Assembly (NCBI GenBank): GCA_009787025.1
Contig: WRGT01000072.1
Span: 12,393 to 76,392 of the forward strand
Direction of reading: 5' to 3'
Length of the DNA: 64,000 nt
From: Spirochaetota bacterium
Lineage (GTDB): Bacteria > Spirochaetota > UBA4802 > UBA5550
The translations under genes and the position numbers were made by a program. Every line of letters starts with the position of its first letter. The first letter of the stretch is position 1. Shown piece by piece: positions 9,805 through 59,162 of this stretch. The notes under the pieces are model-generated. The model was not told where the DNA came from, did not search any database, and saw only the letters and a program-made list of their open reading frames with translations.

Positions 9805-9817
9805 AAAAACAAAAAGT

Positions 9818-10006
9818 TCATACGGAAAATGTTGGATCTTTTTTTATCAAAATTTCTTTAATTTTTGATTCACCTGCTGAAAAATATATTATATGAGATT
9901 CCATCAAAGAGTATTCATTCATAACAGCAAAAAATTCTTCATCAAGGTTTGTATCAAGGAGATCTATCTCCCTTAATTTTCTATTTCCTATATATATTGC
10001 TTTCAT
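9818..10006 (-). CDS. small hypothetical protein (62 aa)
   Basis: ORF only, weak RBS; no recognisable motif. Confidence 0.25.
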   Translation of the reverse strand: MKAIYIGNRKLREIDLLDTNLDEEFFAVMNEYSLMESHIIYFSAGESKIKEILIKKDPTFSV

Positions 10007-10264
10007 AATTTACCCTAACTTTTTATTTAGCATACTCTAAATATTACCCAATTTAATATTTGTCCAGTATTTTAATACATTTTTTTCAATAAATATTCAA
10101 TAAATATAATTACATCTCAATGATAAAGGCTATTATTAAAAAATCATTATATTATGATTGATTTTTAGTATTGACTTTTTTTTAAGCGCTTATTGTAATT
10201 GCAGTAAATAATATATTCATGATATTGTTCAAGATAAAAAATTAACTATTAAAAAATAAAAAAT

Positions 10265-10960
10265 ATGAATAAAATTAAAAAATACTCAATAGCTACATCC
10301 GTTTTTATGCTAATCTTTTTTTCGGCAAATACATTTGCTTACAAATTTGAATTTATAACCGTTAGTGATGTAGTAAGCGAAACTAAAAAAAAATATAGCA
10401 GCCTTAAATCCTATCAGGCAAATTTTACAATAATCTCAGATAAAGGTGGGAAAAGAATAACTCAGACAGGAGTTCTAAAATTTAAATCCTCTGATAAATT
10501 ACTTATGGAGTTCTCCACTCCATCGAGACAAAAATTAGTATCTAATGGACAGATGATGTGGATATACATACCTTCCATGAATGTTGTAGCGGAACAGGAT
10601 CTTACATTTGAATCCGGGCTTTTTACTTCAGGCTCAGAGGCAGGACTTAACAGACTCTTTTCTAAATACCATTACAGGTTTGCATCAAAAGAAGAGCCTG
10701 AAACAATAAATGACGGGAGTAAACAATATACCCTTGTATTAAAACAGAAAGAGACCAGAGGCGGATATAAAACAATTAATCTATGGATATCAGAAGATTA
10801 CTTTATTAAAAGAGCAGAAGGTCTTACATCATCAGGTAAAAAAATAGAAATTACACTTTCAGATATAAAAACAGATGTTGATTTTCCTAATGCACTTTTT
10901 AAATTTGACATACCTGCATCAGCTCGAATAATAAAAAATCCTATGTTATCAGAGGAGTAA
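10265..10960 (+). CDS. LolA-like outer-membrane lipoprotein carrier / sorting protein
   Basis: signal peptide, about 230 aa, LolA-like beta-sandwich pattern (KSYQANFTI...GVLKFKSSDKLLMEF...NGQMMWIY). Confidence 0.55.
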   Translation: MNKIKKYSIATSVFMLIFFSANTFAYKFEFITVSDVVSETKKKYSSLKSYQANFTIISDKGGKRITQTGVLKFKSSDKLLMEFSTPSRQKLVSNGQMMWIYIPSMNVVAEQDLTFESGLFTSGSEAGLNRLFSKYHYRFASKEEPETINDGSKQYTLVLKQKETRGGYKTINLWISEDYFIKRAEGLTSSGKKIEITLSDIKTDVDFPNALFKFDIPASARIIKNPMLSEE

Positions 10961-10963
10961 GTC

Positions 10964-12106
10964 GTGGAGAGTATTGGAGAAAAATTAAGACAAGCGCGCG
11001 AATCAAAAAAATTAACAATAAAAAATGTAGTTATTGATACAAATATGGCTCCAACTTACATTGAAGCCCTTGAAGAGGAAGATTTTGACAAATTCCCGAG
11101 TGAAACATATATAATCGGTTTTTTAAAAACATATTCAGAGTATCTCAAATTAGACTCTAAAGAGATTATATCCCTTTATAAAAGCTATAAGATTGACGAA
11201 TCGGCAACTCCTCTTGAAGAATTAACAAGACCGACAAAATCTCAATTTATCATGAATCTTGTATCATTTTATGAAAGATATAGAAATCTTGTTTTCTTCG
11301 GCATTGTTGCATTTGTCTCCATTTTAATTATATGGGGCGTTTGGGCAATGAACAGATCAAATGTGCAGATTGATGGATCCGATTCGGTCTCCCAGATTAA
11401 AAAAAATTATGCCGAGAGCCAAAACTCAATAATAAAAAATATTACCAGCTTACAGCTTTCAAATGACAAGGGAATGCCGCTAATATATAAAGAAGAGGCA
11501 ATTCAATTTCTTGTAGATAATAAAGAAGTGGTCTTTTTACTTAAAGATATTGGCGATAATAAAGTTACTGTAAATTTTTTAAACAATGATAACGATATTG
11601 TTTTAGATATAAACAAACAGGTGCCGGTTATACTTGCAGAATGTCCAAGAGAGATACTCCTTACTCTAAAAGGACTTACAGAAAGCCGCGCTAAAATAAT
11701 GATAGAGCTTGGCCGCAACCTTAAAGTCGAAATACCTAACGGAGTGGATGGGCAGGATACCAATGTTAAGCCTGTAACAGATGGTGATAATACAAAGGTA
11801 ATAGCTCAAAATGATAAAAGTTTAAAGATTACTTTTGAGGTAGAATTTATACAAAAATCCTTTATAGAGATATATCTTGATGGGAATATTAAACAGAAAG
11901 GATTTATGCCTGCAGGAAGCAGAGAAAAATGGGAGGCATCTAAAAATATTCAGGTTAAGATTGGGAATGCAGGCGGAATTAAATGTAAAATAAATGAAAA
12001 AGAATTCGTATTCGGCAAGCCAGGTCAGGTTGCAAATAAATTAATAACCTGGAAAAGAGATGTTTCTAATCCTAATGTCTATCATATTGATGTAAAGGAT
12101 TGGTAA
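10964..12106 (+). CDS. RodZ-like HTH (XRE-type) membrane protein
   Basis: N-terminal HTH IGEKLRQARESKKLTIKNV, single TM (LVFFGIVAFVSILIIWGVWAM), C-terminal DUF4115-like; GTG start. Confidence 0.55.
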   Translation: MESIGEKLRQARESKKLTIKNVVIDTNMAPTYIEALEEEDFDKFPSETYIIGFLKTYSEYLKLDSKEIISLYKSYKIDESATPLEELTRPTKSQFIMNLVSFYERYRNLVFFGIVAFVSILIIWGVWAMNRSNVQIDGSDSVSQIKKNYAESQNSIIKNITSLQLSNDKGMPLIYKEEAIQFLVDNKEVVFLLKDIGDNKVTVNFLNNDNDIVLDINKQVPVILAECPREILLTLKGLTESRAKIMIELGRNLKVEIPNGVDGQDTNVKPVTDGDNTKVIAQNDKSLKITFEVEFIQKSFIEIYLDGNIKQKGFMPAGSREKWEASKNIQVKIGNAGGIKCKINEKEFVFGKPGQVANKLITWKRDVSNPNVYHIDVKDW

Positions 12107-12109
12107 GAT

Positions 12110-13435
12110 GTGCTTAAAGCTTCAGAGCTTTCTTTTTATATAATATCCCTCGGTTGTTCAAAAAACTTAGTAGATTCAGAGCTAATTAATGGAGATATGA
12201 TTAGTGCAGGATTTATTTCTTCCGAAACTGCTGAAGATTCTGATATAATAATAATTAATACATGCGGATTTATTCAAGATGCCAAGGAAGAATCCATCGA
12301 AACGATATTAGATTCAATTGATCTAAAAGAAAACCGTAATAGTGATAAAGAACTAAAACAACATAACTTTAAAAAAAAAATTGTTGTTGCAGGCTGCTTA
12401 GCAAAAAGATATTTTGCTGAAATAAAAAGAGAAATACCGGAAATAGATTTTCTCTATGGAATCAAAGATGAAAAATTTGTTTCTGCATTATGTCATAAGT
12501 TTAATATTGAACATAACTCAATATTAAAGGTAAGAAAAAAACTTTATAATACCTGCCCATTCTCATATATTAAAATATCCGACGGATGTTCCAATAATTG
12601 CAGCTACTGCGCTATCCCTATTATAAGGGGACCTCATGTTCCATTCCATCCGGACCAGATACTAAAAGATGCGGAATATGAAGTTGCAAATGGCGCATTA
12701 GAATTGAATATCATTGCCCAGGATATAACTATGTATAAATGGGAAACAATCGATCTTCCTTTATTAATTAATAATATTTCTAAAATTAATAACTTAAAAT
12801 GGATCAGACTTCTCTACTGCCACCCTGACCATATAACAGATAAAATCATAAACCTAATAGCTGAAAATGAAAAAGTTGTACCATATATAGATATACCATT
12901 TCAACATGTAAATGAAACTCTTTTAAAATCTATGGGTAGAAATGGCAGCAGCCATAAATACCTTAAGCTTATTGAAAAATTAAGAAAAAAGATTCCCCAA
13001 ATATCTATAAGATCAACTTTTATGTTAGGTTATCCGGGCGAAGATGAAAAAATTTTTTTAGAATTACTAACATTCATTAAAACTGCAATGATTGATAAAG
13101 TTGGGTGCTTTATTTTCTCTCCCGAAGAGGGGACACAGGCATATAATCTCTGTGATAATATTTCAGTTGATGAAAAGAATAGAAGATTCAATGAAGTAAT
13201 GTCTATACAATCTCGAATATCACAGGAAAAATTAAATGATAAAATAGGCTTGGAATTAGATGTATTAGTAGAAGAAAAATTAGATGAAAAAACATATATG
13301 GGAAGAACTATATTTGATGCGCCTGAAGTAGATGGAATTTTTTTCTTGACCGCAAATGAAAATAAAATTAACAAAATCGTAAGAGCAAAAGTCACAGATT
13401 CTATAGAATATGATCTTATCGGAGAAATGATATGA
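12110..13435 (+). CDS. rimO: radical-SAM methylthiotransferase, RimO-like (MiaB family)
   Basis: N-terminal MTTase Cys (LGCSKN, NTCGF), radical SAM CSNNCSYC, C-terminal TRAM-like; 441 aa; GTG start. Confidence 0.7.
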   Translation: MLKASELSFYIISLGCSKNLVDSELINGDMISAGFISSETAEDSDIIIINTCGFIQDAKEESIETILDSIDLKENRNSDKELKQHNFKKKIVVAGCLAKRYFAEIKREIPEIDFLYGIKDEKFVSALCHKFNIEHNSILKVRKKLYNTCPFSYIKISDGCSNNCSYCAIPIIRGPHVPFHPDQILKDAEYEVANGALELNIIAQDITMYKWETIDLPLLINNISKINNLKWIRLLYCHPDHITDKIINLIAENEKVVPYIDIPFQHVNETLLKSMGRNGSSHKYLKLIEKLRKKIPQISIRSTFMLGYPGEDEKIFLELLTFIKTAMIDKVGCFIFSPEEGTQAYNLCDNISVDEKNRRFNEVMSIQSRISQEKLNDKIGLELDVLVEEKLDEKTYMGRTIFDAPEVDGIFFLTANENKINKIVRAKVTDSIEYDLIGEMI

Positions 13436-14052
13436 AATTGTCAGGCGATAAATTTAATTTACCTAATATGATTTCATATCTGCGAATAATTCTCATCCCT
13501 TTCATAATATATTTTTTGAAAATGAAATCCGTAGAATACCTGATTTATTCTCTTGTATTATTCATGTTTGCTTCATTTACAGACTTAGTTGACGGATGGA
13601 TTGCAAGAAAACTTAAACAGGAATCGGAATTTGGCAGATTCATAGATCCTATTGCTGATAAATTCCTTGTTATTGCATCACTTTTTGCAATTATAACAAT
13701 TGATCCCTATTTTGAAATACTTGATTATTGGATGATTATAATAATAGCAGGGAGAGATATTCTTATAACAGTCATGAGAATATTAGCCATAAAAAAAGAG
13801 AAACAACTGCAAACAAGCAATTTCGGCAAATTTAAAACCGCATTTCAAATGCTGTCAATTGTAATCATTATAATGATATATATGTCTAAGAGGAGCGGTT
13901 TTTTTGTTACTCACGAATCTGTTCCTTATTACATTATGCTTGCCGTAACACTAATGACTGCATTTTCGGGAGTAAGATATATTATTACTAACTGGCAATT
14001 GTTTTTCCCTGAAAAAAAATCATATAAAAAATCATATATGGATGAGAAGTAA
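13432..14052 (+). CDS. pgsA: CDP-diacylglycerol--glycerol-3-phosphate 3-phosphatidyltransferase
   Basis: CDP-alcohol phosphatidyltransferase motif DLVDGWIARK...FGRFIDPIADK; 4-bp overlap with rimO. Confidence 0.75.
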   Translation: MKLSGDKFNLPNMISYLRIILIPFIIYFLKMKSVEYLIYSLVLFMFASFTDLVDGWIARKLKQESEFGRFIDPIADKFLVIASLFAIITIDPYFEILDYWMIIIIAGRDILITVMRILAIKKEKQLQTSNFGKFKTAFQMLSIVIIIMIYMSKRSGFFVTHESVPYYIMLAVTLMTAFSGVRYIITNWQLFFPEKKSYKKSYMDEK

Positions 14053-14545
14053 AATGAAAATAAGAGAATTTCTTTTTACTGCATTTTATTCAGGTTATTC
14101 ACCGGTTGCGCCGGGTACTATGGGTACATTAGTTGCAATGGTTATATATATCATTGAAAATATTATTTTCTCCAATATAGATCCTATGAAGTTAAATGCT
14201 TTTAATTTAATCTTTTTACTTATAATAATTTATCCATCTATTAAACTTTCAGATGAAGCTGAAAAATTTTATAATACCAAAGATCCCAAGCAGGTTGTTA
14301 TTGATGAAGTCCTCGGTTATTGGACAGGGGTTTTATTTGTTCCATTTAGTTTTTCATATGCAATAATCGCTTTCATCCTCTTTAGATTTTTTGATATAAC
14401 AAAACCTTTTTTTATACGTTATTTTGAATCATTACCCGGAGGACTTGGTATTATTATGGATGACATAATTGCAGGAATTTATACTCTTATGTGTATGCAT
14501 ATAATAATCTATTTTCTAAACCAATATAACATAGTATTACCATAG
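14042..14545 (+). CDS. pgpA: phosphatidylglycerophosphatase A
   Basis: PgpA pattern YSGYSPVAPGTMGTL ... DEVLGYW ... GLGIIMDDIIAGIY; overlaps pgsA by 11 bp. Confidence 0.7.
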   Translation: MRSKMKIREFLFTAFYSGYSPVAPGTMGTLVAMVIYIIENIIFSNIDPMKLNAFNLIFLLIIIYPSIKLSDEAEKFYNTKDPKQVVIDEVLGYWTGVLFVPFSFSYAIIAFILFRFFDITKPFFIRYFESLPGGLGIIMDDIIAGIYTLMCMHIIIYFLNQYNIVLP

Positions 14546-14638
14546 TAAAAAGAGATATTTATTTTAGATATTGCTTAAATTAATAATAAAAAAATTATGC
14601 TTCAACTTATCTTTAGGAAGAGGAGTAGATAATCAAAA

Positions 14639-15127
14639 TTGGAAAAGAGCTACTTATATAATACGGAAAAAATTAAGTATGTTAAAGGTGACAGACCGGC
14701 AGTAGAATGTATACTATGCGCAATTAGAGATAATGATCCGCTTGTGAAAAATCTTATTATACACAGTACTGAAAAATTTATTATAGCAGTAAATCTGTTC
14801 CCATTTAATCCGGGTCATTTAATGATATTTCCTAAAAGACATATATGTCAAATAAATGAGTTAACGAACGAAGAGGCTGTTGAATTACATGAACTTTTAG
14901 CAAAAACTATAACAATACTTGATGAAGAATTTAAGCCTTCTGGATATAATGTAGGATATAATATAGGCGAAGGGAGCGGAGCAAGCATACCCCATCTTCA
15001 TCAACATATTGTTCCGCGATATCCGAATGAAGTCGGTTTTTTAGACGTCCTTTCGGGAACAAGAGTAATAGTTAACAATCCTGTAGATACAATGGAGCGT
15101 CTGAAAAAAAAGTTCAGCAATCTATAA
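14639..15127 (+). CDS. HIT-family nucleotide hydrolase/transferase
   Basis: histidine triad HLHQHIVPRY. Confidence 0.7.
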   Translation: MEKSYLYNTEKIKYVKGDRPAVECILCAIRDNDPLVKNLIIHSTEKFIIAVNLFPFNPGHLMIFPKRHICQINELTNEEAVELHELLAKTITILDEEFKPSGYNVGYNIGEGSGASIPHLHQHIVPRYPNEVGFLDVLSGTRVIVNNPVDTMERLKKKFSNL

Positions 15128-15144
15128 ACACAAGCTTTTTATCC

Positions 15145-16353
15145 TTAATTTTCTAACAGCCAATCTATTACATTTATTTTTTGTATTCCTTTGTAAGTTG
15201 TTACAGGTTCAACATCGGTAGTGAGCAAAATTCGACGATTGAAATCTTTTATCAATTCAAAGGGTCTTATTTCCCGCTCAAAGACGCTTTGTTCTTTTGC
15301 TGTCCAAGCCACTTGTATATATTCTCTGTCTTCATTTGGTTTTCTCACAACAAAATCAATTTCTGTATTGTCGGCTTTACCGATATTCACCTGATTTCCA
15401 CGTCTTAACAATTCCAAGTAAACAACATTTTCCAAATTATGCCCTAAATCAAGATTGTTTTTATCTCCAAGAAAAAATTTCTTCAATCCCAAATCAACTG
15501 TATAATATTTTTCTTGTGTACTCAAAAGTCCTTTTCCCCGCAAATCGAAACGCTTTACTTTGTAAAAGATAAACGACTCGACCAAAGCGTTGATATAATT
15601 TTCGACCGTATTATGAGAAATGGAAAGTTTGTTATTGGTTTTCAAAGTGTTGGTTATTTTTTTTGGAGAAATAATTGAGCCGATAGAATCAAAAAGAAAC
15701 GCCGTTGTTTTGTAAAAATGCTCTTCGTTTTTCCATTTGTTGCGAACCAATACATCTTTCTGAATAATGCTTTGTATGACATCTTGAATATAATTTTGAA
15801 TATAATTATCGTGTAAGTCAAAAATTCCCGGCATTCCGCCTGTATCAATATATTTTGCAAACAATAAATCGGTACGGGAAATATCCTTTTGCGTCAAAAG
15901 AAATTCTTTGAACGAAAACGGCAAAATGTGAATAGAAATATAGCGGCCTGTCAGCAATGTTCCTAATTCACTCGAAAGCAGATAGGCATTTGAACCTGTG
16001 ATATATACATCAATATTAGGTTTTACATAAAGCCAATCAACAAGCCGTTCAAATTCTCTTACCTGCTGAACTTCATCAAGAAAAACATAACAGGATTTTG
16101 ATAAATCCAACTGATTTACAATGTGATAATACAAACCTTCAAAATCATTTAACCATTTGCTGTTTTCAAAATCTTCAAAATTCAGAAAAACAATTTGAGC
16201 TTTGCCGATACCGTCAGAAATCAAATAATCGCAAAACATCTGCATTACGGTTGACTTCCCGCAACGCCGCACTCCTGTGAGAACTTTTATCAGGTTTTTA
16301 TCTCGCAGCCCAATAAGAGTATTCATATAATCTTTTCGTTCAATATGTTTCAT
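15145..16353 (-). CDS. AAA-family ATPase with C-terminal DUF4143-like region
   Basis: Walker A GVRRCGKST, Walker B FLDEVQ; GC elevated (about 36-42%) relative to neighbours. Confidence 0.7.
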   Translation of the reverse strand: MKHIERKDYMNTLIGLRDKNLIKVLTGVRRCGKSTVMQMFCDYLISDGIGKAQIVFLNFEDFENSKWLNDFEGLYYHIVNQLDLSKSCYVFLDEVQQVREFERLVDWLYVKPNIDVYITGSNAYLLSSELGTLLTGRYISIHILPFSFKEFLLTQKDISRTDLLFAKYIDTGGMPGIFDLHDNYIQNYIQDVIQSIIQKDVLVRNKWKNEEHFYKTTAFLFDSIGSIISPKKITNTLKTNNKLSISHNTVENYINALVESFIFYKVKRFDLRGKGLLSTQEKYYTVDLGLKKFFLGDKNNLDLGHNLENVVYLELLRRGNQVNIGKADNTEIDFVVRKPNEDREYIQVAWTAKEQSVFEREIRPFELIKDFNRRILLTTDVEPVTTYKGIQKINVIDWLLEN

Positions 16354-16446
16354 ATTTTATTGTCTTACAGATCAAAGTTTTGATTTTCTATAAGTTTGGT
16401 CTGTAAAGGCACAAGTAATTTTTTAGTAAAATACGTGATTTTTATT

Positions 16447-16620
16447 TCACTTTTTTTCTTTTGCGCTGGCTATAACCTTAAAACCATATTTCTTTATCAT
16501 GTTTTCGGTACTTTGCTTATAATACTCCGTAAGCTGAGAGGGAGTCATGTCTTTTGTTTTTTCGTAAATCACAAGCCGAATTTGATTAATTTCCTGCTCA
16601 ATTGAGTTAGGAGCTTTCAT
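16447..16620 (-). CDS. unannotated small protein (57 aa), paralog of the ORF at 31899-32093
   Basis: minus-strand translation MKAPNSIEQEINQIRLVIYEKTKDMTPSQLTEYYKQSTENMIKKYGFKVIASAKEKK aligns with MKTYKTIEQEINQIRLKIYEETKDLTPEQYTDRVRRIGENAAKKYGF...; conserved upstream region with GGAGG RBS. Confidence 0.5.
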   Translation of the reverse strand: MKAPNSIEQEINQIRLVIYEKTKDMTPSQLTEYYKQSTENMIKKYGFKVIASAKEKK

Positions 16621-16804
16621 TTTCTACAACCTCCATAGGTGAATATATTTCAATAGCACGATAACCATTCATATTTTATTTAAGCCAATATTTTTTTATG
16701 ATATGACAGAAAATTTCCCCCACTTGATCGCCACGCTGAGTTTACACTGTACTACCAAAAAATTTAAACAGGTTTCGCGATGACGAAATAAAAAACAAGT
16801 ACCT

Positions 16805-16869
16805 AAAAAATCTGCGCAAATCCTAAATCATCTGCGTCATCTGCGAGCTCTCTGTTCATGCTACCAATA
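16805..16869 (+). repeat. iteron-like motif (3x ATCTGCG) shared with 31518-31579 in inverted orientation
   Basis: aaaaaatctgcgcaaatcctaaatcatctgcgtcatctgcg...ctgttcatgcta matches the reverse complement of 31518-31579. Confidence 0.7.
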
Positions 16870-29678: not shown

Positions 29679-30434
29679 ATGCCGCTTTTACTTAATCAAC
29701 CTGAACTTTTATCAAAAGATCACTATCTCCTGAAAATAGAGACGAAAGAATCGAATTTTAACCCGGGACAATTTATAAATATAAAAACATCAGCTAATAC
29801 CGACCCCCTTCTTAGAAGACCTATTTCAATATTTGATGCAGAGGGAAATAGTATTAGTATAGTTGTGAGAGTAATAGGAAAAGGAACTGAGCTTATTAGC
29901 CGCATGAAACCCGGAGATATGGATGTCATTGGTCCATTAGGAAAAGGTTTTACAATAGAAAAAAATAAAAAGGTTATCCTCATTGGAGGCGGAGTAGGAA
30001 ATGCGCCTTTATATTATTTGATGAAAAAATTGAATGATGAAGGAACTAAAGTTACATACATTTATTCTGTTAAGAATAAAGACTTTATCTTTGAAAAAAA
30101 CAAATTTAAAACTCTTGCCGATGAATTTTTTATCACTACAGATGACGGTTCCGAAGGTATAAAAGGGATGGCTGTAGATGTTTTAAGAGATAAAATATCA
30201 TCAAAAGATTATGATAGAATTTATTGCTGCGGACCAGAGCCTATGATGGAAAAAATTGTGCAACTTGCAAATACAAATACGCCTGTTGAAGTTTCAGTTG
30301 AAAATTATTTCGGGTGCGGAGTGGGACTATGCGTTGGCTGTACTGTTGATACTGTAGAAGGCTATAAAAGGGCTTGTGTTGACGGACCGGTATTTGACGG
30401 CAGAGTGATTCTGTGGGATAAGATGGGGGGATAA
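29679..30434 (+). CDS. pyrK: PyrK-family FAD/NAD(P)-binding oxidoreductase with C-terminal 2Fe-2S (dihydroorotate dehydrogenase electron-transfer subunit-like)
   Basis: FAD-binding RRPIS, NAD GGGVGNAP, C-terminal CGVGLCVGC cluster; no pyrD adjacent. Confidence 0.65.
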   Translation: MPLLLNQPELLSKDHYLLKIETKESNFNPGQFINIKTSANTDPLLRRPISIFDAEGNSISIVVRVIGKGTELISRMKPGDMDVIGPLGKGFTIEKNKKVILIGGGVGNAPLYYLMKKLNDEGTKVTYIYSVKNKDFIFEKNKFKTLADEFFITTDDGSEGIKGMAVDVLRDKISSKDYDRIYCCGPEPMMEKIVQLANTNTPVEVSVENYFGCGVGLCVGCTVDTVEGYKRACVDGPVFDGRVILWDKMGG

Positions 30435-30515
30435 TTCTTCGGCGCTACCGTATGGGCTACAAGCCCTCGACAGCCCATTGAGTTCTTAATCTTTTTTGTT
30501 AGTTCCCGTTAATTC

Positions 30516-31352
30516 TCAGTTTTCTTCCAACAGCCTCTTCCCTGAATTATTAGCGCTAAGTTTGCTAACAGCAGGTCTGCCTGTGCTTTTCTCAATCTGT
30601 TTGCGTGCGACTTTTGCAGCTTTCGCGCCTTCTTGGGCAACTTCAGCGCTTTCATCAAATCCACTCGGCTGCCTTACTATCGAAATATCCGTAGCTGCAA
30701 CTTCAGCGAGCATATTCAGCACAAGTTCCGTGTTGGTCATATTATCGCGTAGATTTTCTTTTTTCAGCCCCTTATATTTTTTATACTCACGGGTGGTCAT
30801 GCCGCTCCATGTCTTGCTCATCAAATCGGTGAGTGCAGAATACTCCGTACCTTGCTTAACGCCGCTTTTATCCCATTCGTCTGTTAGAGCTTTGCGGACT
30901 TCGATTAATTTAATACGTTGATTTATCCAACTTTCGCTGTAACCCAAACGCCGGTAATTTTGTATAGCACGGTCGATTGATTGTTCCGGATCAACCGTTT
31001 CGTCAATACGCTCATTACCTACTTTGGCAAGCCATAATTTAAACGGCTCTGCCCTTTTGCTTGGTATGGATTGAATAAGGCGCAGAATCTGTTCTGTGTC
31101 TGCAACATCGGTGAGCCGCATTTTACCATCCGGTGAAAGCATTTTCAAACCGTGACAATTTGTCACGGTTTCATTTCCTTCTTCTTTCAATCGTTGTTTC
31201 AATTTCCTCCAATATGCTTGAGCATCTGCGCTATCGGTCAATACCGAAACAACATCCACAATCGAAAACCACCATTTTTCCGCTTCTTCATCCCATACGG
31301 CGCGGACTTGTTTTTCTCCAAAAAGTTTGATTTTTTCTTTTGATTCACTCAT
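30516..31352 (-). CDS. DinD-like (DNA-damage-inducible protein D) / Bro-N domain protein
   Basis: Bro-N pattern IKLFGEKQVRAVWDEEAEKWWFSIVDV; C-terminal half KKYKGLKKENLRDNMTNTELVLNMLAEVA parallels E. coli DinD; GC about 42%. Confidence 0.7.
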   Translation of the reverse strand: MSESKEKIKLFGEKQVRAVWDEEAEKWWFSIVDVVSVLTDSADAQAYWRKLKQRLKEEGNETVTNCHGLKMLSPDGKMRLTDVADTEQILRLIQSIPSKRAEPFKLWLAKVGNERIDETVDPEQSIDRAIQNYRRLGYSESWINQRIKLIEVRKALTDEWDKSGVKQGTEYSALTDLMSKTWSGMTTREYKKYKGLKKENLRDNMTNTELVLNMLAEVAATDISIVRQPSGFDESAEVAQEGAKAAKVARKQIEKSTGRPAVSKLSANNSGKRLLEEN

Positions 31353-31422
31353 AATAGCTCCATAATATATTAATATTTCTTGTCAATATAAAATCCGAGG
31401 CTTGCAAAATCCTACCATGTAC

Positions 31423-31442
31423 AGACAAGGCATGCCTTGTCT
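31423..31442. promoter_or_regulatory. perfect 20-bp palindrome AGACAAGGCATGCCTTGTCT about 70 bp upstream of the dinD-like start
   Basis: sequence is its own reverse complement. Confidence 0.6.
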
Positions 31443-31517
31443 CTTCACCTATATATAATATAAACGATTGAAAATGGTTAGTGATGAAAAATTTTTTTTA
31501 TTTTTTTGAATTTTTTT

Positions 31518-31579
31518 AGCCTCATAAACAAGGGGCACGCAGATGACGCAGATTTATAAGGATTTTCGCAGATTTTTTT
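31518..31579 (-). repeat. second copy of the ATCTGCG iteron-like motif (inverted relative to 16805-16869)
   Basis: cgcagatgacgcagatttataaggattttcgcagattttttt. Confidence 0.7.
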
Positions 31580-31660
31580 AAGAATTGGAATGTCAGAAAA
31601 ATAAATTTGGGGGAAGTCCTATTTGTTATCAGGTTGAATTACGTCCCTTTTCAACTTTGC

Positions 31661-31722
31661 CTGTAGGGCATTCATATCAATAGAAAAATAGTTATCCCTC
31701 TCACGCATAGTCCGTAGGACTT
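31661..31722 (+). repeat. about 62-bp palindromic miniature repeat (copy A of the GTAGGRCATTCATATCAATAG...TAGTCCGTAGGAC family)
   Basis: ctgtagggcattcatatcaatagaaaaatagttatccctctcacgcatagtccgtaggactta; two more copies at 35509-35672. Confidence 0.75.
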
Positions 31723-31898
31723 ATACATTTGTCGCATCCTTAATAGGTTTACGGAAAAATAAAGAAAGGAGTAAACGACGAGACAAGTTACAATATATGG
31801 AAATTAGTTGACTTTTTATAGGAAGAATCAAAAAATAGATAACTCATTAAACGGTTATCAGATTATCGAAATATATTCGCCGATGGAGGTAGTCGATA

Positions 31899-32093
31899 AT
31901 GAAAACATATAAAACTATTGAGCAGGAAATAAATCAAATCAGATTAAAAATTTATGAAGAAACCAAGGACTTAACACCGGAACAATATACAGATAGAGTA
32001 CGCAGAATAGGCGAAAATGCCGCTAAAAAGTATGGTTTTCAACGTATTACCAACCCTGCCGGCGTACAGGCTGCCGCCTCGACAACCCGTTGA
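31899..32093 (+). CDS. small protein (64 aa), paralog of 16447-16620; C-terminus runs into a dinD-like pseudogene
   Basis: conserved promoter/RBS region with the other copy; last about 18 codons overlap the reverse strand of the dinD fragment and differ from the paralog's tail. Confidence 0.5.
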   Translation: MKTYKTIEQEINQIRLKIYEETKDLTPEQYTDRVRRIGENAAKKYGFQRITNPAGVQAAASTTR

Positions 32094-32290
32094 CTACAAT
32101 CGGTCGTACGATTGTAGAATTTTCCGTCAACAGATTGCATTTTCAATTGGTGACAATTTGTCACCGTTTCATTTCCTTCTTCTTTCAGCCTTTGTTTTAG
32201 TTTGTTCCAATACTTTCGCGCTTGTTGATAATCAGCATCAAACTTATTAATCCGATTTTGTTGAATCTTTTCGTTGCTTTGCTTTTTACG
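32039..32290 (-). pseudogene. truncated paralog of the DinD/Bro-N gene (N-terminal fragment, no start codon)
   Basis: frame gives ...DADYQQARKYWNKLKQRLKEEGNETVTNCHQLKMQSVDGK... matching residues about 38-86 of the 30516-31352 product; DNA about 85% identical over the gtgacaatttgtcac core. Confidence 0.55.
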
Positions 32291-32366
32291 TTCATAAATT
32301 TCTCTTAAAATTAATTTTTTATAGATAGTGAGTCAATTTTTATGTACAAAGCGGAAAATAGAGAAT

Positions 32367-34169
32367 TTAGTTTTTAACAATTCCATATTGTATTGCAAAA
32401 TTTAGAAAATCATTTAATAATTTATCTTCTCGTTTTTCAATATCTGCCTTAATCCAATCATCGTGCGGATACTCTTTTGCCAATTTATTAACAATTTTTA
32501 TTGGTGATTTTTTATACCATCTGTCTTTTTTTGTTTTGAAAAAACCATCACCTGCCTGAATATTAGTTTTTTTATCCAGAATTATTTTATTCCCAAGTTT
32601 TTCTAAATATTCGTCAGCCTCTTTGCGGTTCCAGTTTTTATAATTTGCTGATTTCCAATTTTTAGGCAAAATATGTTCTATCTCTATTTTTATTTTTCTG
32701 TTGTTTCCATTTCTATCAATTAAAGTTTGTTCCGGAATTTGATATGCCTCCCATAATAATACCGGTTTAATCATAAATTTTGAATGAGCGTAAATGTTAT
32801 GAAATTCCCGCTTAAAATCTTCTTTAGCAAAAATAGGATATTTAAACTGTCTTTTATTTGCAATATCAACAAATGCAGGTATTGAAGCGTTTTTTATGTA
32901 TGATACTCCCGGTCGGGTAATATATGAAACAAAACAATATGCAAGAGTTTTCTTTGTAAATTCCTCAAATCCCTTTTCTTCAAGTTTATCTTCCTTGCTT
33001 TTGTTTGCAAAAAAATATACGGTAAAATTATATTTCCAAAACGCATTTGGCATATGTTCTAAGGCGTGTACATATTTCAGAGCTTCCTCAGAAACCTCAA
33101 AATCGTTATTGGCATCCTTATCTGATAGTACTTTCCAAAAATTTGAGAGAGATATAACATCTTTCATCACTTCGTCATTCTTTAATTTCTCATACTTGTT
33201 TTGTTCAAAATACTTTCTAAGTCCGGGTACTGTTGTATCTTTAATATTATCTTTTGCGCGAAGCCAATACATATACTGGGTAAAGATTTCATCAGTTGTA
33301 TTCTGATTAGATTTATTATTTTTTGGAATGTCATCACATATTTCTGAGAATTTCTGCCATTTTTGAATAAAGCTGTCTTGTTTGTTATCATTGCTATAAT
33401 ATTTATACAATTGCGCTTTAAAAATATCAGAATCGGACAAAGGCATGCCTCTATCGTTTAGTGTTGTGAATATCCTCAAAGCAACATCTTGAGATTCACA
33501 TTCTATCGGCAATAAAATACAGTTGTTTAATATTCGTATGCATAAATTGTAAAATGGAATCGGATAATCTTTTACATATTCATCAATCCATTCTGTAAAA
33601 TGTCGATAATTTTGAGAATAAATATCTTTTCCATTTGTCGTTGTTCCTGTTTTTAATATACTTATTAATGCTTCACGGTCTTTATCTGTCGCAACCTTTG
33701 TATCAATTTTAATTTTGTCTTTGTTTGGTTCTTTGGTAAATTTGTCGGTATGCCAAATACATTGTCCGATTTGTCTTTTTACTCCTATACTTTTATCATC
33801 TTTAGATGGTTCAAGTTTCTTATAAATAGCTCTTAGCAACAAAAGAAGCGTTGTTATTCTTTGTTGTCCGTCAATAACTTCTAAAAATTCTTCGTTGTTT
33901 TTGACTTCTAAAAATTCTTCGTTGTTTTTGACTTCGTTGTTTTTGACTTCGTTGTTTTTGAACGTTACAATTGAGCCAAGAAAATACTCCTCTTTGAAGT
34001 CATTCGCATCATTTTCCGGCATAGCAAACTCTAAAATATCATCCCACAACGTTCTGCACCTTTCTTCGTCCCACTCGTATGGGCGTTGGTATTCCGGAAT
34101 CAAATATTGATTGGACTTATCGGATAAAAGACTTTCAATTGATTTCTGATCTACATGTAATTTACTCAT
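32367..34169 (-). CDS. GmrSD-family type IV (modification-dependent) restriction endonuclease, DUF262 + DUF1524
   Basis: N-terminal DUF262 DGQQR motif (VIDGQQRITT); C-terminal His-Me finger EIEHILPKNW...NKIILDKKTN. Confidence 0.75.
   Translation of the reverse strand: MSKLHVDQKSIESLLSDKSNQYLIPEYQRPYEWDEERCRTLWDDILEFAMPENDANDFKEEYFLGSIVTFKNNEVKNNEVKNNEEFLEVKNNEEFLEVIDGQQRITTLLLLLRAIYKKLEPSKDDKSIGVKRQIGQCIWHTDKFTKEPNKDKIKIDTKVATDKDREALISILKTGTTTNGKDIYSQNYRHFTEWIDEYVKDYPIPFYNLCIRILNNCILLPIECESQDVALRIFTTLNDRGMPLSDSDIFKAQLYKYYSNDNKQDSFIQKWQKFSEICDDIPKNNKSNQNTTDEIFTQYMYWLRAKDNIKDTTVPGLRKYFEQNKYEKLKNDEVMKDVISLSNFWKVLSDKDANNDFEVSEEALKYVHALEHMPNAFWKYNFTVYFFANKSKEDKLEEKGFEEFTKKTLAYCFVSYITRPGVSYIKNASIPAFVDIANKRQFKYPIFAKEDFKREFHNIYAHSKFMIKPVLLWEAYQIPEQTLIDRNGNNRKIKIEIEHILPKNWKSANYKNWNRKEADEYLEKLGNKIILDKKTNIQAGDGFFKTKKDRWYKKSPIKIVNKLAKEYPHDDWIKADIEKREDKLLNDFLNFAIQYGIVKN
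33878..33961 (-). repeat. in-frame tandem repeats inside the GmrSD gene (2 x 27 bp then 2 x 15 bp) encoding NEVKNNEVKNNEEFLEVKNNEEFLEV
   Basis: cttctaaaaattcttcgttgtttttga x2 followed by cttcgttgtttttga x2. Confidence 0.85.
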
Positions 34170-34251
34170 TTTTTTTATCCTTGTTTTAATTAATTCTCTT
34201 ATAATTATATAATAATTTAAAATTTTTACAGCTAATCATTAATGATCGCAT

Positions 34252-34527
34252 CTATTTACCGATATACTCGCCATCCCGAAAAGTTCCCTTTTGTAATATT
34301 CTGCCGTATGAATCATACAGAGTTCCTTGTCCGTGCATTTTATCATCTTTCCATTCACCTACATATTTCCCCATCAAATCATAAGTCATAGTTCCCTCGC
34401 CGTTCGCTTTACCGTCTTCAACTTGACCTGCATATTTTGAACCATCAGGGTAAGTAAGTGTTTTGCTTGAACTCGCGTAGCTTGGCAACAAACCGAACAA
34501 TACGCATAAAAGTATTATTTTTTTCAT
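34252..34527 (-). CDS. small secreted MORN-repeat protein
   Basis: signal peptide then three YxGxxxxGKxxGxG MORN-like units. Confidence 0.55.
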   Translation of the reverse strand: MKKIILLCVLFGLLPSYASSSKTLTYPDGSKYAGQVEDGKANGEGTMTYDLMGKYVGEWKDDKMHGQGTLYDSYGRILQKGTFRDGEYIGK

Positions 34528-34716
34528 TTTATTGTCTCATTCCTTTAATTTAATGTAAAAGCTCTTCCATATTTTTTTATTTCTATTTTAATCAATTGAG
34601 CAGCCTCCCCAAACAAAAAAACCGCAGAGTAAGGACAAATTTTTTGCCCCATATTCTGCGGTTTTATTTCATTAATTAAATTTTTGCTTGATTTTAATTC
34701 AGTAATTAAAAAATTA

Positions 34717-34793
34717 CTTGCTGCTTGCTGCTTGCTGCTTGCTGCTTGCTGCTTGCTGCTTGCTGCTTGCTGCTTGCTGCTTGCTGCTTGCTT
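34717..34793. repeat. heptanucleotide microsatellite (CTTGCTG)x10 plus a degenerate unit
   Basis: ten perfect 7-bp units 34717-34786 then cttg cttgcgg; lies between the MORN gene and the MNT gene. Confidence 0.95.
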
Positions 34794-35079
34794 GCGGTAT
34801 TGTTATGTCAAGTGGTATCTTCATATAAGAAGTTTTATTTTCATATCTTATTTCAGTCAAGATATTTTTGAGAGTGGGTGTGAAAAAGTGGATAAAAAAA
34901 ATAATTTATTGCCCCTAGTAAAGGCTGCAAGCCTTATAATCAGCAGCGCAGGGCAAAGCCCTATCCTATTGATTTTGTCCCTACGGGACATTAAAAAATT
35001 GATGCTGTCCTTTCAGGACATTGAAAAATGGTGTAAAATACATACTTGACAAATAATAAAAACTTAATGTAATTAAAAT

Positions 35080-35400
35080 ATGGATAATTTTGAAGAAAGA
35101 CTCAATAATATAAAAGACTCCGTCCTGAAGTTTGTACCTGCAAAGTATATATATCTGTTTGGCTCTTACGCCTATGGAAATCCAACAGAAAAAAGTGATA
35201 TAGATGTTTATATTGTAACACCGGACAATATAACTAATTTCTCTGAATTATATACAAAAATTATAGTAGATTTAAGTTATAAAAAAATATTTTTTATAGA
35301 TTTGTTATTAAGCACTGAAAGTGTTTTTAATAAAAGAAAAATAGAAAATATTCTCGAAGAAACAATATTTCAAAAAGGAAAAGTAATTTATGAAAATTAA
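35080..35400 (+). CDS. minimal nucleotidyltransferase (MNT, pol-beta superfamily; HEPN/MNT-type antitoxin-like)
   Basis: GS-x9-DxD motif FGSYAYGNPTEKSDIDVYIV; 106 aa; no intact HEPN partner (19-aa overlapping ORF 35390-35449 only). Confidence 0.65.
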   Translation: MDNFEERLNNIKDSVLKFVPAKYIYLFGSYAYGNPTEKSDIDVYIVTPDNITNFSELYTKIIVDLSYKKIFFIDLLLSTESVFNKRKIENILEETIFQKGKVIYEN

Positions 35401-35508
35401 AGATGTAATAGAATGGATACAAATCGTTGGGAGTCTCGTTCTGAAATAGGTTTACATATTAATAGTTAAATCCTGATATAGATTAACAAAACATTATTAT
35501 TTCTATAT

Positions 35509-35672
35509 TGTCCGTAGGACATTCATATCAATAGAAAAATCGTTATCCTTTCACAAATAGTCCGTAGGACTTTAACTGAATACACCAAATATTTTGTTAT
35601 TTAATGTGTTAAAGTCCTACGGACTATTTGTTTATTATTATGCTATTATCTATTGATATGAATGCCCTACGG
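35509..35672. repeat. inverted pair of the about 65-bp palindromic miniature repeat (copies B1 35509-35575 and B2 35607-35672) forming a large hairpin
   Basis: gtccgtaggacattcatatcaatag...aaatagtccgtaggactttaac and its reverse complement separated by 31 bp. Confidence 0.8.
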
Positions 35673-35925
35673 GCAAAAATTACGCAATGATACATTAATA
35701 TGTAAACTTTTTTTAGGACGAGTCACTCTTGAGCATATTGTCAGGCCAGAGAGTGATTAGGGGAACATCTACCAAACCTTTTGAAAATCCTGCATGACTC
35801 GCCAATAAAATAAAAATAACTAACAAATATCGTTTTGCCGACTGTGGTTTCATTTACTTTCTCCCAATCACATGCAAAATGAGCAATACAAAATAACGAG
35901 GTAAACAAGCGATTGCTAATCGCCT

Positions 35926-36516
35926 CTACTTAAACAGCGGAGATAACTTTTTAAATTCCGCTGTCCCAGCTTGTTCAAGCAGCATAAATGCAATTGTTTC
36001 CGTAGGATAAATTAAAGCGCCAGCCTCTCTTAACATGGCAATAGCGCTGTCTTTATCATCCTTTTTTCTTGAGGCTACTCCGTCCGAAACAATAACGACA
36101 TTACGGGCTGAAGCAACGAGACTCAATGCTGTCTGAAATACGCAAATATGAGCTTCAATACCAACAACAATAACGGTCTTTTTAGTACTCCCTAATATTT
36201 CTTTTTTTATCTCTTCCTCTTTCATTGCATCAAAAAATATCTTCTCAAAAACCTTAGCGCCAGGTATAATATCTTTTAACTCAGGTATTGTTTCACCAAG
36301 ACCTTTTCTATACTGCTCGGTAACTATCATGGGAATTCCGAATTCATTTGCAGTTTTAAATAATATTGCGCAATTTTTCTTTAACATCCTTTGATAATCG
36401 CTCTCCATAGCCTGAAATAATCTCTCTTGTATGTCTATTATTAGCAGCAACGAATCACTTTTATTAATCATAAAATCTTGCATCTGCTTTCCTCTTGATT
36501 TATTGCAAAAGTTCAT
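35926..36516 (-). CDS. isochorismatase-family cysteine hydrolase
   Basis: LLIIDIQERLF and catalytic Cys GIEAHICVFQT; alternative start at 36483 would remove the 17-bp overlap with PBP1A. Confidence 0.7.
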   Translation of the reverse strand: MNFCNKSRGKQMQDFMINKSDSLLLIIDIQERLFQAMESDYQRMLKKNCAILFKTANEFGIPMIVTEQYRKGLGETIPELKDIIPGAKVFEKIFFDAMKEEEIKKEILGSTKKTVIVVGIEAHICVFQTALSLVASARNVVIVSDGVASRKKDDKDSAIAMLREAGALIYPTETIAFMLLEQAGTAEFKKLSPLFK

Positions 36517-39365: not shown

Positions 39366-40214
39366 ATGATAATAAATCACAACATTGCCGCAATATTTTC
39401 TCATAGAACTTTAAAATTCCATGATTGGAGTTTAACAAAAGACATTGAGAAACTCTCCTCAGGTATGCGTATCAATAAAGCCGGTGATGATGCTTCAGGA
39501 CTTGCCGTATCTGAAAAAATGAGGGCTCAAATTCAGGGTCTAAGGCAGGCTGAAAGAAATACTGAAGATGGTATGTCTCTAATTCAAACTACAGAGGGAT
39601 ATTTAACTGAGCTTCAGGACATAATTCAGAGAATAAGGGTTCTTGCAGTACAGTCTGCAAACGGTACCTATTCTGATGAAGATAGACAACTGATACAGAT
39701 TGAAGTTTCAGAACTTGTTGATGAGATTGATAGAATAACATCTATGGCTGAATTTAACAAAATGAAACTCTTAACAGGTTCTTTTGCGCGACTTCATCCT
39801 ACGGCATCTATGTGGTTTCACATGGGACCAAATATGCACCAAAGAAGGAGAATTTTCATTGAAACAATGTCATCAGCAGCGCTTGGATTAAGGAATCCTA
39901 CTGTACTTACATTTATTTCAATATCAACAGCAGGAAAAGCTAACTCTGTAATTGGTCTTACAGATGAAGCTCTCCGAATTGTATCAAAACAAAGAGCTGA
40001 CCTTGGAGCATATTATAACAGACTTGAACATGCTTCTAAGGGTCTTTTTAATGCTTATGAAAATGTTCAGGCATCTGAAAGCCGAATCAGAGATACCGAT
40101 ATGGCAGAGCAGATGACTTCATTTACAAGATATCAAATACTTACACAAGCTGCTACTTCTATGCTCGCTCAGGCAAATGCCAAGTCGCAGACTGTGTTAC
40201 AGCTATTAAAATAA
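39366..40214 (+). CDS. flaB: flagellin, spirochaete FlaB-type filament core protein
   Basis: [16 protein letters not shown]..., [41 protein letters not shown]-terminal [14 protein letters not shown]...[17 protein letters not shown]; 282 aa. Confidence 0.85.
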
Positions 40215-58319: not shown

Positions 58320-59162
58320 TTAAACTAAACCATTAATTTCATCATTCATTTCTTTTAAGGCTTGCGCCGAAGCATCTGCATAGCTCATATTCTTAAAAGT
58401 CTTGTATGCATAATTCAAAGAACTTGATGCATTAATCCTGTGTATCTTAATATCCGGCGTATTTTTTAAGACATTCATTACATCTTCAATACTTCCGCCC
58501 TGAGCTCCTACACCCGGAATTAAAAACGGAATCTCCTTTTTTGCTTCTATAAATATATCAGAAATCATTTTAAGCTGCTGCGGATATGTCGCTCCTGCTA
58601 CAGAACCTATTCCGGGATGGAACCACTTTACTACAAGTTCTGCAATATGTAAAAATAGCTCCTTCTCATTCACCTTTAAATCCTGTATCTCTTTTGAAGT
58701 GCTATTGGAAGTTTTGGTAAGTATATAATATCCCTTATCAGGGTAGCCCTTAATAAACGGCTCAATGGAATCATAACCTAAATATGGAGACAGCGTAACT
58801 CCGTCTGCATCAAAATAATCAAATGCCTCCTTTGCATAGGCTTGCGCGGTTTTTCCAATATCACCCCTTTTATAATCAAGTATAACCGGAATATCTGCTG
58901 ATTTATAAAGTTTAATTATTCTTTCAAGAGATATAATACCATCCATACCGTACTGCGCATAGAATGCATAATTCGGTTTAACAGCGCCCGGAAAAATATT
59001 CTTTTGTATAAGCTTATTTAATATGCTTTCATAAAATTTATATATATTATTACCGATGGAATCATCTTTTTCCGGTATATCTTCAATTACAGGGTCAAGA
59101 CCCATACATACTATACTTGAAAATTTATCAGCGCTTTTTTTAAGAATATCAATGTAGTTCAT
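58320..59162 (-). CDS. pyrF: orotidine 5'-phosphate decarboxylase, type 2 (long form)
   Basis: about 280 aa, IVCMGLDP motif, type-2 architecture. Confidence 0.7.
   Translation of the reverse strand: MNYIDILKKSADKFSSIVCMGLDPVIEDIPEKDDSIGNNIYKFYESILNKLIQKNIFPGAVKPNYAFYAQYGMDGIISLERIIKLYKSADIPVILDYKRGDIGKTAQAYAKEAFDYFDADGVTLSPYLGYDSIEPFIKGYPDKGYYILTKTSNSTSKEIQDLKVNEKELFLHIAELVVKWFHPGIGSVAGATYPQQLKMISDIFIEAKKEIPFLIPGVGAQGGSIEDVMNVLKNTPDIKIHRINASSSLNYAYKTFKNMSYADASAQALKEMNDEINGLV

Follow-up and report, generated by a model that had tools for sequence, protein, structure and literature searches.

DinD of Escherichia coli and DdrC of Deinococcus radiodurans are DNA-damage-inducible DNA-binding proteins. 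Among the type IV restriction enzymes of the GmrSD family, experiments have established antiphage activity for HEC-06, and mutation demonstrated that both of its motifs, DGQQR and (D/E)HxxP, are required (bioRxiv 10.1101/2024.01.29.577857). The PDC systems of the PADLOC database are candidates, proposed from their embedding in restriction-modification (RM), BREX or DISARM operons (bioRxiv 10.1101/2024.01.29.577857). Here we compare with these systems an island of genes at positions 30435-35925 of a 64,000-nt stretch of Spirochaetota DNA (assembly GCA_009787025.1, contig WRGT01000072.1, positions 12,393 to 76,392), to which all our coordinates refer and which we call the window. With a probability of roughly 80%, we read this island as a small, decayed defence islet made of independent modules that accumulated at a recurrent insertion hotspot between two convergent core genes.

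The island and its flanks are the following:
29679-30434, plus strand: left flank, core gene for a pyrK-like electron-transfer subunit of dihydroorotate dehydrogenase B (Pfam DHODB_Fe-S_bind, NAD_binding_1 and FAD_binding_6; NCBIfam match).
30435-35925, unstranded: the insert, 5,491 bp, present in none of the related genomes, between the convergent pyrK and isochorismatase-family genes.
35926-36516, minus strand: right flank, core gene for an isochorismatase-family hydrolase (Pfam 1e-25), with a PBP1A neighbour that is kept in relatives.

We mapped the proteins of the window onto 54 loci fetched around pyrK homologues, one genome per species (fetched loci bear L numbers). In the 13 closest loci holding both flanks (L001-L009, L011, L016, L017 and L048; pyrK identity 58-72%), pyrK and the isochorismatase-family gene lie next to each other in convergent orientation with 15-400 bp between them, followed beyond the latter by PBP1A and then a flagellin gene, in the same order as in the window. 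Nucleotide homology to the relatives is lost at 30425-30439 and comes back at 35927, which delimits the insert as 30435-35925. The locus therefore has the conserved flanks, and the insert missing from relatives, by which a genomic or defence island is recognised. A first-pass annotation, made from the bare sequence, had placed an accessory island between these two genes and named a gene order shared across relatives as the observation that would contradict it; we looked for such an order and saw the two flanking genes directly adjacent instead. Farther right, the synteny of the relatives stops after the flagellin gene (39366-40214): from 40361 onward comes first a gene for a Fic/MerR-domain protein, and those after it lack counterparts in the fetched loci.

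Other relatives carry unlike cargo at the same spot. In L010 it consists of three unrelated genes, including those of a lectin-like and a ferredoxin-like protein, and in L034 of two giant Ig-repeat proteins. L013 has a 7-kb insert at the pyrK 3' site (7970-15240) with helix-turn-helix and PadR regulators, an N-terminal fragment of a phage integrase, a 227-aa protein and a distinct GmrSD that is only 25% identical to the one in our island. The 3' end of pyrK is therefore a recurrent insertion site. In a more distant clade the gap beside pyrK is filled by two conserved genes of ~308 and ~322 aa, neither with a Pfam match. The expectation that pyrD would normally sit there found no support, since no relative has it on either side of pyrK; it was also not found among the window open reading frames (ORFs) of suitable size, and pyrF lies at 58320-59162.

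Across the left junction and the interior of the island the assembly is sound: both the pyrK/Bro-N junction and the MORN/GmrSD segment are matched at 100% identity by independent JGI and Logan contigs. The window contig corresponds to an ENA metagenome contig with 100% identity over the 20.8 kb fetched, and its proteins are also filed under an NCBI 'Spirochaetes bacterium' metagenome-assembled genome (MAG) with FWF73_ locus tags. Identical pyrK and GmrSD proteins occur in several assemblies, on contigs of 50-200 kb and with the same neighbours.

Inside these borders the insert is a mosaic, as the first-pass annotation had described it: in nucleotide comparisons with the fetched loci, separate stretches match different, unlinked foreign loci, and the GC content of the modules ranges from 24% (the MNT gene) to 43% (the Bro-N gene), with 33.5% for the island as a whole and 32.7% for the window. 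Running PADLOC, a check proposed at the same time, matched three models, PDC-S13 (1e-129), HEC-06 (6e-44) and PDC-S09 (1e-10), an enrichment in defence genes. Searches with Pfam, Tandem Repeats Finder (TRF) and for repeats likewise recovered the GmrSD, heptanucleotide tract, MNT gene and palindromic repeats that had been listed.

The largest module is a restriction enzyme:
32367-34169, minus strand: intact gene for a GmrSD-family type IV restriction enzyme, HEC-06-like (Pfam GmrSD_N 7e-39, GmrSD_C 2e-15; PADLOC HEC-06 6e-44).
33877-33961, minus strand: perfect in-frame tandem repeats within this gene, 27 nt x2.2 and 15 nt x3; NNEVKNNEVKNNEEFLEVKNNEEFLEV.

It joins the DUF262 (GmrS) and DUF1524 (GmrD) domains in one chain, with Pfam scores (134.5 and 57.3 bits) above the cut-offs, and its motifs are intact, DGQQR at residues 100-104 and EHILP, of the (D/E)HxxP type, at residues 498-502. 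Since both domains and both motifs are preserved in this way, we infer a functional modification-dependent type IV nuclease. Sequence similarity to solved members is confined to the N-terminal ~110-135 residues, with an N-terminal match to SspE. The 15- and 27-nt repeats extend the loop immediately N-terminal to DGQQR, and the lengthened loop is possibly prone to slippage.

Next to pyrK lies a second intact gene, and farther right a fragment of a relative of it:
30516-31352, minus strand: intact gene for a Bro-N-domain protein with a helical C-terminal half (Pfam Bro-N E=7e-11; PADLOC PDC-S13; 43% GC, against 33% in the window).
~32105-32245, minus strand: fragment of a second Bro-N/PDC-S13 gene, ~47 codons covering about residues 40-85; pseudogene.

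The match to the PDC-S13 model is nearly full-length (E=1.2e-129, residues 4-271 on positions 3-270 of 286), and by eye the gene has its own TTGACA-N17-TATATT promoter and GGAG ribosome-binding site. Both features had been given a DinD label. The Bro-N domain and the elevated GC content stood up, and the pseudogene does exist, with 80% nucleotide identity to 31122-31214 of the intact gene (its portion 32137-32212 also matches Bro-N genes of other loci). The DinD assignment was rejected, as the NCBIfam equivalog NF008573 scores 21 bits against a cut-off of 242 and residues 133-255 alone align. Together with 165 nt upstream (30519-31517), the intact gene has 85% nucleotide identity to L066/L067, from a MAG labelled Leptospirales. 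The family counts >8000 matches and reaches ~80% identity to MAG proteins labelled Treponema, Synergistaceae and Pseudomonadales; on the Treponema- and Pseudomonadales-labelled contigs the gene stands alone amid housekeeping genes, and the nucleotide homology covers the coding sequence only. Lone PDC-S13 genes thus occur among housekeeping genes of distant phyla at ~80% protein identity; PDC-S13 Bro-N genes or homologues lie in L193 (6001-6858), L195 (6001-6858), L096 and L141. The AlphaFold2 (AF2) model of the protein (pLDDT 67) had DdrC as sole significant fold match (E=1.5e-4, TM 0.3-0.46). The modelled fold would be compatible with DNA binding, and at such low TM-scores no mechanism can be deduced from it. 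In the literature we found no paper naming PDC-S13, nor one that treats DinD jointly with Bro-N and defence.

Two further modules have lost a gene. The first of them has a counterpart elsewhere in the window:
31791-31909, plus strand: remnant of a VapC/PIN-fold gene, native promoter fused to the last ~25 codons (tblastn of intact members).
31899-32093, plus strand: small gene (64 aa), retained although its upstream PIN partner is deleted (126 homologues).
32094-32117, unstranded: terminator-like hairpin 3' of the small gene (sequence and fold analysis).
16447-16860, minus strand: second toxin-deleted PIN/small-gene remnant, outside the island, adjoining a PDC-S01 ATPase gene (15145-16353).
16447-16620, minus strand: second small gene (57 aa), a duplicate 15 kb from the island copy.
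16613-16711, minus strand: second PIN tail, part of the remnant 16447-16860.

A duplicated small-gene module had been announced within the island; the duplicate is real and lies outside it, at 16447-16620. Named homologues of the 64-aa protein come from Spirochaetes, Peptococcaceae and Clostridiales MAGs, and we fetched its context in Peptococcaceae, a Clostridiales MAG, a JGI/ENA metagenome contig and L189, another contig of the same metagenome assembly with proteins bearing the same MAG's locus tags. In all four, the start of the small gene overlaps the end of an upstream gene by 14 nt. This upstream gene encodes 157-159 aa in three of the four and an internally deleted, 89-aa version in the Peptococcaceae contigs (L058), and its family has 907 homologues. 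Intact members match the window through their C-terminal 20-33 residues only, at both copies (tblastn). The same genome retains an intact pair (L189, 544-1198), to which window 31791-32064 has 84-91% nucleotide identity (91% for the small gene), and the promoter of the island remnant, at 31791-31847, corresponds to L189 474-530.

Because Pfam and PDB sequence searches with the 157-aa partner and the small proteins gave no match, we placed the 157-aa family by fold. The top Foldseek matches (E<=0.001) of its AF2 model (pLDDT 79) are all VapC-type PIN proteins, with TM 0.6-0.74, and residues E7, E49, D99 and N118 are invariant in the family; according to this model, the lost gene belonged to a family with a PIN/VapC fold. 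The island module is a toxin-deleted, toxin-antitoxin-like pair with an orphan small partner that is presumably still expressed, and the overlap of the two genes together with the survival of the second suggest that the 64-aa protein could be an antitoxin. Overlapping pairs, a 157-159-aa protein followed by one of 54-70 aa, are found at L063 2808-3438, L061 5535-6165 and L189 544-1198, and copies of the PIN family and its small partner are mostly on short contigs. Beside the second remnant lie the PDC-S01 AAA-ATPase gene (PADLOC E=2e-142) and a CGCAGATGACGCAGAT arm, so that 15145-16860 is possibly another small accessory patch.

The second reduced module and its surroundings occupy the right-hand part of the island:
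34252-34527, minus strand: small, predicted secreted MORN-repeat protein, 91 aa (Pfam MORN 1e-11; promoter-like site 34559-34531).
34598-34660, both strands: bidirectional terminator-like hairpin with U-runs on both strands.
34717-34792, unstranded: perfect heptanucleotide microsatellite (CTTGCTG)x10.9 (TRF score 152, 100% matches).
35080-35400, plus strand: orphan MNT nucleotidyltransferase of MntA-like antitoxin type (Pfam NTP_transf_2 4e-12, 47 bits; PDC-S09 1e-10).
35390-35449, plus strand: 19-codon stub after MNT, overlapping the MNT stop by 11 nt and entering the outer arm of a palindrome.

The MNT protein scores 39.3 bits against NCBIfam MntA, under the cut-off of 60, and its gene has the lowest GC content of the island modules (24%). 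No intact HEPN toxin gene stands beside it, only the 19-codon ORF, which we infer to be what is left of the start of a HEPN-type partner gene; beyond the palindrome there is no ORF or recognisable motif of a HEPN remnant. Homologues of MNT or MORN were in no fetched locus. The MORN protein had been called a lipoprotein. Its MORN repeats are there, by its sequence the N-terminus looks like an ordinary signal peptide (MKKIILLCVLFGLLPSYA/SSS), and the lipoprotein label was dropped, given a single Cys at residue 8 after a 4-residue hydrophobic core and no convincing lipobox.

The hairpin at 34598-34660 has folding energies of -27.6 (minus strand) and -22.7 kcal/mol (plus strand), with z-scores of -4.5 and -5.1. 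On the minus strand the heptanucleotide tract lies 60 nt upstream of it, which leaves the tract ~190 nt from the MORN start, with the terminator between, and ~290 nt from the MNT start. A tract of this perfection far exceeds chance. No long ORF crosses it, stop codons flanking it in all minus-strand frames, and it is absent from all the other fetched loci. As a contingency locus it would have the long, perfect repeat of a unit that is not a multiple of 3, but it is placed neither in an ORF nor between promoter elements. At 34659, only 58 nt from the tract, an independent JGI contig begins; this fits an assembly difficulty there and is no evidence of length variation. In the simplest reading, tract and terminator are the remains of the 3' end of a gene that has vanished from the minus strand.

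The non-coding gaps of the island hold two families of palindromic repeats, one of them resembling repetitive extragenic palindromic (REP) elements:
31523-31580, plus strand: one arm of the 'motif A' palindromic repeat (CGCAGATGACGCAGAT...CGCAGATTTTTT), with a second copy at 16805-16860.
31649-31730, plus strand: single REP-like unit (hairpin, ATTCATATCAATAGAAAA, spacer, hairpin), matching other loci in sequence.
34968-35029, plus strand: two degenerate REP-like hairpin heads in a 30-nt tandem, immediately upstream of the MNT promoter.
35435-35722, unstranded: double REP-like palindrome of ~290 bp, a pair of inverted units enclosed by arms of 29 nt (inverted repeats I7 and I15).

A REP-like unit consists of a hairpin (e.g. 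GCCC-GTA-GGGC), ATTCATATCAATAGAAAA, a 20-28-nt spacer and a second hairpin. Within the window such units are restricted to the island, and the GTCCGTAGGAC-type palindrome has 8 matches (4 sites, both strands), all of them in the island, against 0.8 expected. Two stretches, 31648-31730 and 35488-35730, match the family, with homologous full palindromes in L122, L172 and other loci. The double palindrome (35430-35725) folds into one 290-nt hairpin with a dG of -65 kcal/mol and a z-score of -13. The 19-nt core recurs in at least 120 stretches of a public metagenome contig collection. Elsewhere the units occur singly, as perfect inverted pairs of ~170 bp (L122, 13430-13600) or in tandem (L129, 60-300). 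The L129 array is a 52-nt tandem, and many copies sit at contig ends. A comparison of 80 loci with repeats showed two, L096 and L141, in which no more than ~100 nt separate a unit from a Bro-N homologue. We analysed covariation in 82 distinct units, with nothing but the central CGTAG of the second hairpin as anchor. The three flanking positions form Watson-Crick pairs in 79, 77 and 80 of these units, each with two to four standard pair types, and pairing kept through such varied pair types indicates that the second REP-like hairpin is under selection. Motif A forms a ~110-nt palindrome in L180 (40-160) and a second two-armed copy in L074 (7250-7340); 31534-31579 matches both, and the window has single arms only. 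Neither family matched Rfam, and a scan of 29-37 kb (E<=1) returned chance-level matches only.

From these elements a history of the islet can be proposed. The hotspot would be the promoter-free gap where two convergent core genes meet at their 3' ends, and the islet would have been built there piecemeal from one- or two-gene modules circulating independently. Acquisition may have proceeded by homologous recombination through the conserved flanks, or an older, integrase-borne element may have brought the cargo in and eroded afterwards. Two modules appear functional: the GmrSD/HEC-06-like enzyme, with a DGQQR NTPase domain and an EHxxP His-Me nuclease predicted to cut modified phage DNA, and the functional-looking Bro-N/PDC-S13 gene, a candidate of DNA-binding type. 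In two modules of toxin-antitoxin type the toxin would have disappeared and its harmless partner stayed, in one case by deletion of the PIN gene with retention of the small gene, in the other by a palindromic repeat that probably severed a HEPN partner from the retained MNT. The Bro-N fragment and the microsatellite with its terminator would be further wreckage, and the hairpin-forming repeats seem to have colonised the non-coding gaps.

On this evidence the locus is an ordinary small defence island. An undescribed combination of functions had been anticipated here; each module has homologues in other contexts, and nothing ties the modules together functionally. No new system, combination or mechanism is evidenced. 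Several observations weigh against reading it as a defence islet built at a hotspot. PDC-S13 and PDC-S09 are candidate systems, and the MORN gene is without a link to defence. The mean GC content of the island (33.5%) equals that of the genome, and most of the insert is therefore not compositionally foreign. The nearest GTDB species has 72% pyrK identity, too far to define the exact empty site or the order of acquisition, and the collections hold no closer relatives (90% clusters of pyrK, MORN and MNT have one member each). Finally, the last 200 bp on the right (35723-35925) could be native intergenic DNA.

An alternative that we consider unlikely is that the whole 5.5 kb derives from a single integrative element (a prophage, integrative and mobilizable element or satellite) that entered the 3' end of pyrK and lost its integrase and attachment sites by erosion. 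The phage-integrase fragment found with a GmrSD at the same position in L013 fits such an origin, as do Bro-N, a phage-associated domain by its Pfam name, and the decay seen throughout the insert. Against it, the insert has no phage structural, replication or regulatory genes, its modules match different unlinked loci, and the PDC-S13 family appears in just 4 of 50,697 phage records (and 24 of 72,556 plasmids). Signatures of mobility are equally missing, as the first-pass annotation had already remarked: there is no tRNA in the whole 64 kb and no integrase or transposase Pfam match on any called gene between 19.7 and 43 kb. The boundary direct repeats it hoped to define did not materialise, since neither direct nor inverted repeats at the island ends rise above chance and the longest direct repeat is a 9-mer, reached in 24% of shuffles. 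Its proposal of a decayed mobile or defence island is supported by the visible decay, by the defence-type genes recognised by PADLOC and by the lack of an integrase, a tRNA and direct repeats.

A more active role for the repeats seems improbable to us. According to this proposal, both hairpin-repeat families would drive an integrase-independent gene capture, Y1/RAYT-type or repeat-mediated, that assembles defence modules at safe-harbour sites, with the C-GTA-G REP-like units and the CGCAGATGACGCAGAT palindrome as working parts and the heptanucleotide tract as a hypermutable switch.

It is very unlikely that the Bro-N protein as sensor, the small protein, GmrSD as effector and MNT form one integrated multi-gene defence system. 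The genes are close together and three match PADLOC models, but their directions diverge, and terminator-like hairpins follow the small gene and precede the MORN promoter. In addition, Treponema and Pseudomonadales have the Bro-N gene on its own amid core genes, the small gene is found behind a PIN-family gene in the examined loci and not with GmrSD, and the combination recurs in none of the fetched loci.

Spirochaetes are known to have chromosomal integrons, and imperfect palindromes between small unrelated genes could recall a cluster of attC sites lacking integron-integrases (CALIN), that is, an integron-like cassette array in which the repeats would be attC sites. We rejected this very unlikely reading on the architecture of the repeats: they are two 4-bp/3-nt hairpins around a conserved 18-mer, not a single R''-L''/L'-R' palindrome with a GTTRRRY core. 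Genes in mixed orientations, at least three of them with promoter-like hexamers close upstream (those of Bro-N and MNT read by eye), and repeats that stand single, in tandem or with unrelated neighbours across at least 120 stretches of metagenome make a cassette array still harder to credit. A metagenome assembly chimera, conceivable for a MAG contig with repeats near its right-hand junction, or plain conserved core DNA can be practically dismissed, the former by the several assemblies with identical proteins and neighbours and by the JGI and Logan contigs at the left junction and in the MORN-GmrSD segment, the latter by synteny.

The decayed defence islet puts on record that the pyrK 3' end is a recurrently used insertion hotspot in an uncultured lineage related to Leptospirales. 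It offers, too, a clean case of defence-islet erosion, in which toxins have been deleted and putative antitoxins survive under the native promoter. For annotators it yields several by-products: a PIN/VapC-fold family (907 members) and its 54-70-aa partner (126), neither with a Pfam model, two abundant structured repeat families, and the very conserved PDC-S13 as a lone gene across phyla. The current understanding of defence systems is unchanged by it. Elsewhere in the window, the gene that departs most in composition encodes an iron-containing alcohol dehydrogenase (4760-5968); its GC content reaches 54%, against 33% for the genome, and it is likely a recent transfer.

The modules can finally be set against the known systems they resemble most. 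The GmrSD protein shares the DUF262 and DUF1524 domains and the DGQQR and EHxxP motifs with Eco94GmrSD, BrxU, SspE and HEC-06, the last being its best PADLOC match (PMC4619093; PMC8565348; bioRxiv 10.1101/2024.01.29.577857), and differs from them in its perfect in-frame 15- and 27-nt expansions right before DGQQR. The Bro-N protein matches the whole PADLOC model of PDC-S13, a single-gene candidate proposed by guilt-by-embedding, whereas here and in two other genomes the gene is alone among housekeeping genes and not in an RM or BREX operon. Its likeness to E. coli DinD is a weak C-terminal similarity (E=2e-4), far below the equivalog cut-off, and its likeness to D. radiodurans DdrC is a fold match limited by the modest pLDDT of the model and the low TM-scores. 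The eroded pair recalls VapBC in the predicted VapC fold of the lost gene's family, its invariant acidic residues and the overlap of the two genes, but its order is reversed, PIN first and small partner second, neither protein is in Pfam and the PIN gene is deleted in both window copies. Similarly, the MNT nucleotidyltransferase and the overlapping downstream start codon are reminiscent of MntA-HepT (MNT-HEPN, type VII), although the MNT score is under the NCBIfam cut-off and the downstream gene is a 19-codon stub. The REP-like family has a ATTCATATCAATAGAAAA core with C-GTA-G hairpins of its own, and shares with REP elements and bacterial interspersed mosaic elements (BIMEs) the short covarying hairpins, the single, inverted or tandem units, the intergenic location and the high copy number. 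As a whole, the islet is tiny (5.5 kb) compared with described defence islands and hotspots, has no integrase, tRNA or att repeats left and consists of wreckage in about half of its content; like them, it holds variable cargo in fixed flanks, with single-gene defence, toxin-antitoxin modules and pseudogenes clustered together.

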